From assembly GCF_003334385.1 (NCBI RefSeq), contig NZ_QOWN01000002.1: DNA of 64,000 bases, one strand, 5' to 3'. Source of the stretch: Escherichia coli. GTDB taxonomy: Bacteria > Pseudomonadota > Gammaproteobacteria > Enterobacterales > Enterobacteriaceae. Both the position numbers and the translations under genes were made by a program. Below the pieces are notes generated by a model. The model was not told the origin of the DNA, ran no database searches, and saw nothing but the letters and a program-made list of their open reading frames with translations. Below, piece after piece: positions 10,892 to 13,441 of the stretch (within the stretch, counting starts at the first letter, position 1; every line of letters begins with the position of its first letter).

Positions 10892-11284
10892 TTACGGATT
10901 TACTTTGCGGATCTGTTTGACGTCAATTTCAACAGAATTCCAGTCTTTATCGACTTCACCCTGAATCTCAACCGTATCTTTCGGCGTCACCGTCACGCCG
11001 TTCCAGCGTTTGTGGTCGATATCAACATTGATAGTACCGCTGGCATCTTTGAACACGTAGAGATCGTCAGAGATGCGTTCAACGATATTGCCGCGCAGGG
11101 TTACCCAGGTGTCGTCACGCAGGGATTTTGCGCTTTCTACAGTCGTTACGCTGCCGTTCGGCCCCTGGAATCCTCCGGCCTGACTTTGCGTTGCCGATGG
11201 GCCAGAAAAACCGCCCTGCTCTGCTGCCATCACCGGTGCGCTGCACAGGGCCATTACTGCGATTACTGCTGCGAATTTTTTCAT
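10892..11284 (-). CDS. ygiW: BOF/YgiW-family periplasmic OB-fold stress protein; start trimmed to MKKFAAVIAV
   Basis: ORF track frame; signal peptide at internal Met; 130 aa. Confidence 0.88.
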   Translation of the reverse strand: MKKFAAVIAVMALCSAPVMAAEQGGFSGPSATQSQAGGFQGPNGSVTTVESAKSLRDDTWVTLRGNIVERISDDLYVFKDASGTINVDIDHKRWNGVTVTPKDTVEIQGEVDKDWNSVEIDVKQIRKVNP

Positions 11285-11435
11285 GTTTATTACTCCCTTT
11301 AATGTCTGTTTCCGAGCATTTAACAAGATAGTCCTTAACAACTTCTTAAGGGAAAAAAATAAAATTTAGTGCTGTACAGAGCGCGTTACAACACGGTTTA
11401 CTGGCAGCAAATACGGTTATCGCAGGGATGAAAAA

Positions 11436-12095
11436 ATGCGAATTTTACTGATAGAAGATGACATGCTGATTGGCGACGGCATCAAAACGGGCCTTAGTAA
11501 AATGGGTTTTAGCGTCGACTGGTTTACACAAGGTCGTCAGGGAAAAGAGGCGCTTTATAGCGCACCTTATGATGCGGTGATCCTGGATTTAACCTTACCA
11601 GGCATGGATGGTCGCGATATTTTGCGCGAATGGCGAGAAAAAGGTCAGCGTGAGCCGGTACTGATCCTGACCGCGCGCGATGCGCTGGCGGAACGTGTAG
11701 AAGGGCTGCGTCTGGGAGCTGACGATTATCTGTGTAAACCTTTTGCGTTGATAGAAGTCGCCGCCAGGCTGGAAGCTCTGATGCGCCGAACCAACGGCCA
11801 GGCCAGCAACGAGCTGCGCCACGGTAACGTCATGCTCGACCCCGGCAAACGTATCGCCACGCTGGCTGGCGAACCCTTAACACTGAAACCAAAAGAATTT
11901 GCCCTGCTGGAATTACTGATGCGTAACGCTGGTCGGGTACTGCCGCGCAAACTGATTGAAGAGAAACTGTATACCTGGGACGAAGAGGTCACCAGTAATG
12001 CCGTTGAAGTGCATGTGCATCATCTGCGACGCAAACTCGGTAGTGATTTTATTCGTACCGTGCATGGTATTGGTTACACATTAGGTGAGAAATGA
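11436..12095 (+). CDS. qseB: Two-component response regulator QseB (OmpR family)
   Basis: ORF track; 219 aa; receiver + winged-helix. Confidence 0.95.
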
Positions 12096-13441
12096 AATTT
12101 ACCCAACGTCTTAGTCTGCGCGTCAGGCTGACGCTAATCTTTTTAATTCTGGCCTCGGTGACCTGGCTGCTTTCCAGCTTTGTCGCCTGGAAACAAACAA
12201 CGGATAACGTCGATGAATTGTTCGACACCCAACTGATGCTGTTTGCCAAGCGGTTAAGTACGCTCGATCTCAACGAAATCAACGCGGCGGATCGCATGGC
12301 ACAGACGCCAAATAGATTAAAACACGGTCATGTTGATGACGATGCGCTGACCTTTGCCATCTTTACCCACGACGGCAGAATGGTCCTTAATGATGGCGAT
12401 AACGGAGAAGATATTCCCTATAGCTATCAACGGGAAGGTTTTGCTGACGGGCAACTGGTCGGTGAAGACGATCCTTGGCGTTTTGTCTGGATGACCTCAC
12501 CTGATGGCAAATATCGCATCGTTGTTGGCCAGGAATGGGAATACCGTGAAGACATGGCGCTGGCGATTGTTGCCGGGCAATTGATCCCGTGGCTGGTCGC
12601 ACTGCCGATTATGTTAATCATCATGATGGTACTACTGGGTCGTGAACTCGCGCCGCTGAACAAACTGGCGCTGGCACTACGTATGCGTGACCCTGACTCG
12701 GAAAAACCACTAAACGCGACTGGCGTACCCAGCGAAGTGCGGCCACTGGTTGAGTCGCTAAATCAACTGTTCGCCCGCACACATGCGATGATGGTTCGTG
12801 AACGACGCTTTACCTCCGACGCAGCTCACGAACTTCGTAGCCCGTTAACGGCGCTGAAAGTGCAAACCGAAGTTGCGCAGCTCTCTGACGATGATCCGCA
12901 GGCGCGGAAAAAAGCACTGCTCCAATTACATTCCGGGATCGATCGCGCTACTCGTCTGGTTGATCAACTGCTCACGCTATCGCGGCTGGACTCACTGGAT
13001 AACCTTCAGGACGTCGCGGAGATCCCGCTTGAAGATCTCCTGCAATCGTCGGTGATGGATATTTACCACACGGCGCAGCAGGCGAAAATTGACGTGCGAC
13101 TGACACTCAATGCCCACAGCATCAAACGCACCGGGCAACCGCTATTGCTAAGTTTGTTGGTGCGAAATTTGCTGGATAACGCCGTGCGCTACAGTCCACA
13201 GGGCAGCGTGGTAGACGTCACGCTGAATGCTGATAATTTCATCGTGAGGGATAACGGCCCCGGTGTGACACCAGAGGCACTGGCGCGAATTGGCGAACGC
13301 TTCTATCGCCCACCCGGACAAACCGCTACCGGCAGCGGGCTTGGGCTATCGATTGTCCAGCGAATCGCCAAATTGCATGGCATGAATGTTGAATTTGGGA
13401 ATGCGGAACAAGGTGGATTTGAGGCGAAGGTAAGCTGGTAA
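12092..13441 (+). CDS. qseC: Sensor histidine kinase QseC
   Basis: ORF track; 449 aa; 4-nt overlap with qseB (translational coupling); H-box AAHELRSPL. Confidence 0.95.

Follow-up and report, generated by a model that had tools for sequence, protein, structure and literature searches.

Architecture of the ygiW/qseBC control region of Escherichia coli: a conserved CTTAA repeat as candidate shared operator of two divergent promoters

The window analyzed here, i.e. the whole stretch of 64,000 nucleotides (nt) of Escherichia coli DNA, contains at positions 10892-13441 (2550 bp) the canonical and well-studied ygiW/qseBC locus, in which ygiW, the gene of a periplasmic stress protein, is oriented divergently from qseB and qseC, the genes of a two-component system that is widely studied as a regulator of virulence, motility and polymyxin tolerance. 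The genes, their arrangement and a CTTAA direct repeat between them are already present in the literature. According to our analysis, this single 17-bp box probably constitutes a shared operator of the two divergent promoters, which would be recognized by a dimer of phosphorylated QseB (QseB~P) as well as by PmrA/BasR. The insights added here are modest and comprise a corrected length of the intergenic region, the invariance of the box across the order Enterobacterales, its fixed 10-nt geometry towards ygiW, and a proximal core promoter of qseB whose spacing to the box appears to be phased. We infer the use of the box as a site in E. coli, the exact transcription start of ygiW and the class I and class II modes of activation from sequence comparison.

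The first-pass annotation of this DNA had supposed that the control region is likely to hold QseB binding sites and had proposed a search for QseB direct repeats in 11285-11435. This search yielded one exact CTTAA-N6-CTTAA repeat at 11334-11349, so that the sequence supports the supposition as far as the presence of a QseB-type element is concerned, albeit as one shared box instead of several sites. The expectation of such a box by chance amounts to about 2e-4 per 151-bp stretch, and the exact repeat is the single match on both strands of the 64-kb window, where shuffled sequences lead one to expect 0.09. In the review PMC5053249, CTTAA-N6-CTTAA is described as the site bound by QseB in the ygiW-qseBC promoter of Aggregatibacter actinomycetemcomitans, where it flanks the -35 element; the review also states that the repeat occurs in the E. 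coli qseBC promoter and that Guckes et al. proposed it there as a PmrA site. Moreover, the QseB repeat is identical to the PmrA consensus (reviewed in PMC5053249).

A relaxed search of the window, allowing up to two mismatches, was uninformative (46 matches versus 44.7 expected) and returned no box upstream of mdaB, although PreA activates mdaB in Salmonella. The sole other box-like site with one mismatch, TTTAAGTTTTACTTAA at 26879-26894, lies in a very A/T-rich stretch upstream of the fimbrial-like gene ygiL and is probably a chance match. A preprint on QseB ChIP-on-chip (chromatin immunoprecipitation analyzed on microarrays) reports no motif, and a literature search on BasR together with ygiW and qseB returned nothing useful.

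The conservation of the box was assessed by a scan for QseB with one genome per species, in which 80 of the 586 loci found were examined. These provided a comparative set of 44 other Enterobacterales species with ygiW divergently upstream of qseB, spanning Escherichia, Citrobacter, Enterobacter, Kosakonia, Hafnia, Edwardsiella, Erwinia, Pantoea, Pectobacterium, Providencia, Budvicia and others. The exact box is present in the same orientation in every one of the corresponding intergenic regions (44/44), whereas its spacer of 5-6 bases and its surroundings differ between species.

On the side of ygiW, the geometry is rigid. In 43 of the 44 species, the box is separated by exactly 10 nt from a hexamer resembling a -10 element (TTTAAT, TTAAAT or TGTAAT, with at least four of six positions matching TATAAT), and the mean match at this offset is 4.55/6 as opposed to 0.8-2.6 at other offsets. 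Since this distance is fixed, the box flanks or straddles the -35 region of ygiW. Half-sites flanking a -35 element, the arrangement known from A. actinomycetemcomitans, are thus found for ygiW and not for qseB, for which the box is centered near -67. In the window, the transcript of ygiW is predicted to start near 11311. In Serratia and Rahnella, in which ygiW is not a neighbor of qseB, the module of box, 10 nt and -10 hexamer directly precedes qseB.

On the side of qseB, the distance between box and promoter is variable, with no offset of a -10-like hexamer from the box exceeding 13 of the 44 species. A mirror-image counterpart of the ygiW -10 element was tried (TAAAAT, 11360-11365, 9 nt from the box) and rejected because it is not conserved. 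Instead, a putative core promoter is discernible further downstream: TGTA[C/A]A is present in 37/44 species, and a -10-like hexamer follows it at a spacer of 17 or 18 nt in 31 of these 37 and at no other offset. Enterobacteriaceae have TTTACT as this hexamer; in Erwinia and Pectobacterium, it is TATAAA or TATAAC. The start predicted from it, near 11409, corresponds to -27 relative to the ATG and coincides with one of two published starts of enterohaemorrhagic E. coli (EHEC), whose intergenic region is of equal length and differs by a single substitution. In addition, the A/T-rich tract between box and core promoter would occupy, judged by its position, the place of an UP element; the A-run is kept in Enterobacteriaceae with short spacing but not in genera with long spacing.

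The number of nucleotides between box and TGTACA depends on the genus and falls into classes of 23-24, 34-35, 56 and 65-67 nt. With a helical repeat of 10.5 bp, these classes share one phase (R = 0.96; P about 0.006 by Monte Carlo simulation); as there are only four of them, the phasing is suggestive and does not amount to proof, which has to be counted against a joint use of the box. Whether the spacing shifts by 11, 33 or 43 nt, the box stays on one face of the helix. In genera with a spacing of 65-67 nt, the additional stretch of about 43 nt includes a conserved T-run, behind which a segment like AAA(C/T)TGCCG is found. This T-run segment, which is absent from the window, could represent another protein site or a bend.

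Taken together, these features suggest the following mechanism. A dimer of QseB~P, or the paralogue PmrA/BasR, for which cross-talk with QseB is described, would dock on the box. Leftward, the box at the -35 region of ygiW would permit class II activation of this gene and probably also of ygiV downstream of it. Rightward, it would lie near -67 of a σ70 promoter of qseBC with the A-tract in between, and positive autoregulation would be exerted from upstream. Translation of qseB and qseC would be coupled via their ATGA overlap, and the operon would end at the terminator-like hairpin behind qseC. In line with such a scheme, PreA of Salmonella activates ygiW 355-fold (PMC2653508), and positive autoregulation of qseBC/preAB by QseB/PreA was reported in EHEC, uropathogenic E. 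coli (UPEC) and Salmonella. A more specific proposal, to which we assign somewhat less than even weight, regards the box as a bidirectional, quasi-symmetric switch that operates in class II mode on ygiW at 10 nt and in a class I-like mode, from one helical face, on qseBC at 23, 34, 56 or 66 nt.

The asymmetry of the two sides also permits a different interpretation, namely that the box serves ygiW(-ygiV) alone, that the qseBC promoter is independent and that the apparent helical phasing arose coincidentally through common descent. The confinement of rigid spacing to the ygiW side (43/44 versus at most 13/44) and the dependence of the phasing test on four independent classes speak for it. It is opposed by the reported autoregulation of qseBC/preAB and by the preservation of the helical face throughout the spacing changes, and no other conserved candidate site is found upstream of the qseB core promoter. 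We therefore regard an exclusive role in ygiW expression as unlikely.

The identity of the cognate regulator has to be considered as well, as the box could be a site of PmrA/BasR only, through which ygiW and qseBC would be tied into iron and envelope signaling, while QseB would act elsewhere or indirectly. Direct binding of PmrA to the qseBC promoter of UPEC, as stated in PMC5053249, and the identity of the repeat with the PmrA consensus are compatible with this possibility, and PmrA is the second-best family match of QseB. On the other hand, the iron-induced surge of qseBC in UPEC requires both PmrA and QseB, and both bind the PmrA-box promoter yibD. Furthermore, Pasteurellaceae retain an identical box with identical geometry, and A. 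actinomycetemcomitans, according to PMC5053249, is devoid of PmrAB, yet its QseB binds the repeat. A site reserved for PmrA/BasR is the least probable of the alternatives considered here, and a box shared by QseB and PmrA/BasR remains our preferred explanation.

Comparison with known systems places this box in context. The ygiW-qseBC loci of A. actinomycetemcomitans and other Pasteurellaceae contain the same three genes, preceded by a box at the -35 region of ygiW and a 10-nt gap to TTTAAT (TTTAAT or TGTAAT across the family). In A. actinomycetemcomitans, however, ygiW is co-oriented and co-transcribed with qseBC, with an attenuator hairpin in between (PMC5053249), whereas in the window the genes are divergent and qseBC possesses its own putative core promoter. 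Viewed in the direction of ygiW, the strand carrying the perfect CTTAA...CTTAA is the sense strand in most of the Pasteurellaceae loci scanned, where it also points toward qseB, and the antisense strand in the window. Salmonella Typhimurium preAB and ygiW-STM3175 exhibit the same divergence as the window, and PreA strongly activates both ygiW and preAB. STM3175 comprises an AraC DNA-binding domain and a GyrI-like domain, while E. coli ygiV encodes only the GyrI-like part (PMC10414762). Promoters with PmrA/BasR boxes, such as yibD, feature direct CTTAA-type half-sites 11 bp apart, and yibD is bound by PmrA~P and QseB~P; pmrCAB and arnB are further promoters of this kind. Unlike these promoters, which were likened to the window by description, the box of the window is situated between divergent promoters and the gene of its cognate regulator is itself a target.

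Several lines of evidence, in addition to the small number of spacing classes, weigh against the architecture proposed here. A generic scan for σ70 promoters found none in the intergenic region. According to PMC5053249 and PMC2653508, DNase footprints in EHEC place QseB at -27 to -40 (11396-11409) and at -409 to -423 (11013-11027), and it is the distal EHEC promoter, with its start at -77/-78 (11358-11359), that is described as regulated by QseBC. The -10 element of such a distal promoter would overlap the box, so that repression, not activation, would be expected there. In Salmonella, primer extension located the start of ygiW 161 nt upstream, inside preA, and the start of preAB at -423/-424, inside ygiW (PMC2653508); these long overlapping leaders disagree with the compact promoters inferred for the window. 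As the Salmonella ygiW start is reported to lie 10 bp inside preA, a length of 151 bp is implied for the intergenic region there, too. Finally, a Reg-Seq preprint (PMC12133099) found the E. coli ygiW promoter to be active in stationary phase only and to pull down TyrR, not QseB.

The footprints give rise to the remaining alternative, according to which the functional QseB sites are those at 11396-11409 and at 11013-11027, the latter inside ygiW. These sites would conform to the consensus CAATTACGAATTA, whereas the CTTAA repeat would be irrelevant to QseB. Footprints and consensus originate from Clarke and Sperandio 2005 and are summarized in PMC5053249 and PMC2653508, and the -27 to -40 stretch includes a conserved block, GGTTTACTG. 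The consensus 13-mer, however, has no match within 11285-11435 at up to three mismatches, and its frequency in the window is at chance level (19 matches versus 19.2 expected). Moreover, the conserved part of this footprinted stretch has the properties of a -10 element: its distance to TGTACA is 17-18 nt, and other genera have TATAAA or TATAAC at its place. The secondary sources also conflict, as PMC5053249 and PMC2653508 disagree on which start the high-affinity QseB site overlaps. In our estimate, an irrelevance of the repeat to QseB is improbable, about to the same degree as an exclusive role of the box for ygiW. If, instead, the bidirectional switch outlined above holds true, QseB autoregulation in Enterobacterales would have the box as its conserved cis-element, in place of the footprint-derived CAATTACGAATTA or the "distal" promoter. 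The published cis-elements of E. coli qseBC are mutually inconsistent. The comparative geometry offers a simple and testable architecture; it could tidy promoter annotation, adds no new system or gene and leaves the role of the locus unchanged.

The Reg-Seq preprint contains further details that bear on the ygiW promoter. The ygiW start found there lies about 40 nt further downstream than predicted, with a possible sigma site at about +30, and the preprint describes an activator-like site about 30 nt upstream of the predicted ygiW start as the one that pulled down TyrR (PMC12133099); its supplement holds no ygiW data. On the assumption that the predicted start lies near 11351, these features might correspond to a TyrR-like box, to the -10 hexamer at 11318-11323 and to a start at about 11311. 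The TyrR-like box, a palindrome that overlaps the putative -35 element of qseB, deviates from TGTAAA-N6-TTTACA at two positions and retains the G and C located 14 bp apart; TyrR-like sites occur four times in the window versus 2.5 expected, a count that is not significant by itself. The three Escherichia species retain both half-sites with a varying spacer, whereas from Citrobacter onwards the right half is missing. Provided that the bidirectional switch is real, this Escherichia-specific box at 11373-11390 could add an input from aromatic amino acids.

With respect to the control region as a whole, its length had been given as 94 bp, which is wrong: the coordinates 11285-11435, themselves correct, enclose 151 bp. 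The region has a G+C content of 37% compared to about 52% in the flanking genes. Of 5422 E. coli genomes, 5335 (98%) show at least 99% identity in this region, while the entire 2550 bp, which are mostly coding, reach this level in only 2213 of 5423 (41%). The higher intergenic identity suggests that purifying selection acts on most of the control region, beyond the box alone. An Rfam scan of 10300-14200 (threshold "evalue") gave no match, and all hits of a terminator scan lay inside coding sequence and were no more numerous than expected by chance.

Several repeats were observed at the borders of this region. The first codons of ygiW, ATGAAAAAATTCGCA, nearly recur in inverted form before and across the start of qseB as ATGAAAAAATGCGAA, giving an inverted repeat of 13 nt with one mismatch (11272-11284 / 11428-11440), and an exact direct repeat of 10 nt is formed by 11270-11279 and 11437-11446. 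An ATG at 11428 would start an out-of-frame upstream open reading frame of seven codons that overlaps the ATG of qseB; it is absent in Escherichia albertii and thus probably incidental.

The features of the locus are compiled in Table 1. The assignments of the first-pass annotation to the three genes proved accurate throughout: the coordinates of ygiW, qseB and qseC agree exactly with the open reading frames and the sequence, the identities were borne out by homology (NCBIfam equivalog and subfamily scores, the Pfam BOF family, PDB 1NNX and RefSeq names), and the divergence of ygiW from qseB-qseC is the arrangement known from the literature on Enterobacteriaceae (reviewed in PMC5053249). The same applies to the 4-nt overlap, in which the TGA of qseB (12093-12095) and the ATG of qseC (12092-12094) share the sequence ATGA, and to the description of YgiW as an OB-fold stress protein with a signal peptide, which agrees with its BOF profile, 1NNX and its N-terminus.

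Table 1. Positions of genes, regulatory elements and other features at the ygiW/qseBC locus of the window
Feature	Position	Strand	Description
GC-rich palindrome TCCCGGGA-ACGCG-TCCCGGGA	10861-10881	-	within the 52-nt ygiW-ygiV gap
ygiW	10892-11284	-	130 amino acids; periplasmic OB-fold (BOF) stress protein; N-terminus MKKFAAVIAVMALCSAPVMA
ygiW signal peptide, Sec-type (predicted)	11225-11284	-	residues 1-20, ending VMA/A; read from the N-terminus MKKFAAVIAVMALCSAPVMA/AEQ
ygiW Shine-Dalgarno GGGAG	11293-11297	-	8 nt 5' of ATG; CTCCC kept in the alignment
ygiW -10 hexamer TTAAAT (putative)	11318-11323	-	exactly 10 nt from the box
QseB/PmrA-type box CTTAAC-AACTT-CTTAAG	11334-11350	+	17-mer CTTAACAACTTCTTAAG; direct repeat 11334-11349
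A/T-rich tract GAAAAAAATAAAATTTAG	11352-11369	+	at about -57 to -40 relative to the start of the proximal qseB promoter
qseBC proximal -35 TGTACA (putative)	11373-11378	+	CTGTACA invariant in 24 short intergenic regions
TyrR-like box TGTACAGAGCGCGTTACA (TGTACA-GAGCGC-GTTACA)	11373-11390		palindrome overlapping the putative qseB -35
qseBC proximal -10 TTTACT (putative)	11397-11402	+	18 nt past TGTACA; start near 11409
qseB Shine-Dalgarno AGGGA	11424-11428	+	7 nt 5' of ATG; CAGGGA kept in Escherichia and Citrobacter
qseB	11436-12095	+	219 amino acids; OmpR/PhoB-type response regulator; phospho-acceptor Asp51
qseB-qseC ATGA overlap	12092-12095	+	GGTGAG 2 nt upstream
qseC	12092-13441	+	449 amino acids; sensor histidine kinase; NF007664 equivalog, 852 bits (cut-off 475)
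Terminator-like hairpin	13449-13485	+	11+3 bp stem, then UUUU; 8 nt past the qseC stop

YgiW scores 220 bits against TIGR00156 (YgiW/YdeI; cut-off 108), and its residues 25-127 cover model positions 1-103 of 103 of the Pfam family PF04076 (BOF) with E = 1e-47. The structure 1NNX ("Protein ygiW") spans residues 22-130 only, which is consistent with the loss of a signal peptide of 20-21 residues. QseB reaches 468 bits with the equivalog NF007663 (cut-off 345), whereas its next-best family, PmrA, attains 250 bits and thereby remains under its own cut-off of 330; the phospho-acceptor Asp51 is known to be essential (PMC5053249). QseC features two hydrophobic segments at about 7-34 and 155-189 (with windows starting at residues 7-16 and 155-171), the periplasmic acidic motif EYRED at 150-154, a motif described as EYR(E/D)D in PMC5053249 and PMC4660874, and an H-box with His246 within AAHELRSPL. 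Its response to epinephrine, norepinephrine and AI-3 and its control of QseB as a phosphatase are known from the literature only (PMC5053249).

As to expression of the operon, the ATGA overlap with its preceding GGTGAG suggests that translation of qseB and qseC may be coupled. The hairpin behind qseC, located between the convergent genes qseC and ygiZ, folds with -19.4 kcal/mol (z = -4.9), and none of 200 shuffled sequences was equally stable. On the other side of the locus, the palindrome in the ygiW-ygiV gap was considered as a terminator and rejected, as it is not followed by a U-run and the 66-nt stretch yields z = -0.85. Lacking a clear terminator, the gap fits co-transcription of ygiW and ygiV; given that ygiW-STM3175 of Salmonella forms one transcript (PMC2653508, PMC10414762), ygiV is probably co-activated with ygiW.

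Of 5426 complete E. coli genomes, 5423 contain a match to the 2550-bp locus, with 100% identity to K-12-type strains, and the RefSeq names of the matched genes are ygiW, qseB and qseC. E. coli K-12, EHEC O157:H7 and UPEC UTI89 share the same locus (qseBC, also ygiX/ygiY), gene order and 151-bp intergenic region; identity amounts to 100% in K-12 derivatives and to 98-99% in O157:H7 and UTI89, each of the latter two carrying one intergenic substitution. Apart from the O157:H7 strain Z1766, which lacks ygiZ downstream of qseC, nothing of substance differs. In the window and in UTI89, ygiZ (DUF2645, 110 amino acids; 13487-13819, minus strand, in the window) lies between qseC and mdaB; in Z1766, mdaB starts 110 bp past qseC, and the corresponding gap in Salmonella is 106 bp, ygiZ being a presence/absence polymorphism.

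Further genes are situated downstream of ygiW on the minus strand, i.e. ygiV directly adjacent (GyrI-like, 160 amino acids, 10357-10839) and the toxin-antitoxin pair mqsR-mqsA (9427-10120). RefSeq labels ygiV as an "AraC family transcriptional regulator", while its product is without the AraC DNA-binding domain according to PMC10414762. Among natural variants of the locus, the urine isolate E. coli 98219 carries an IS903B element that splits qseB near its 3' end, and CFSAN051542 matches only from query position 1078 on, a truncated winged-helix gene occupying the place of qseB in this strain. With qseB split in one strain and replaced in the other, natural qseB-null strains with an intact qseC exist.

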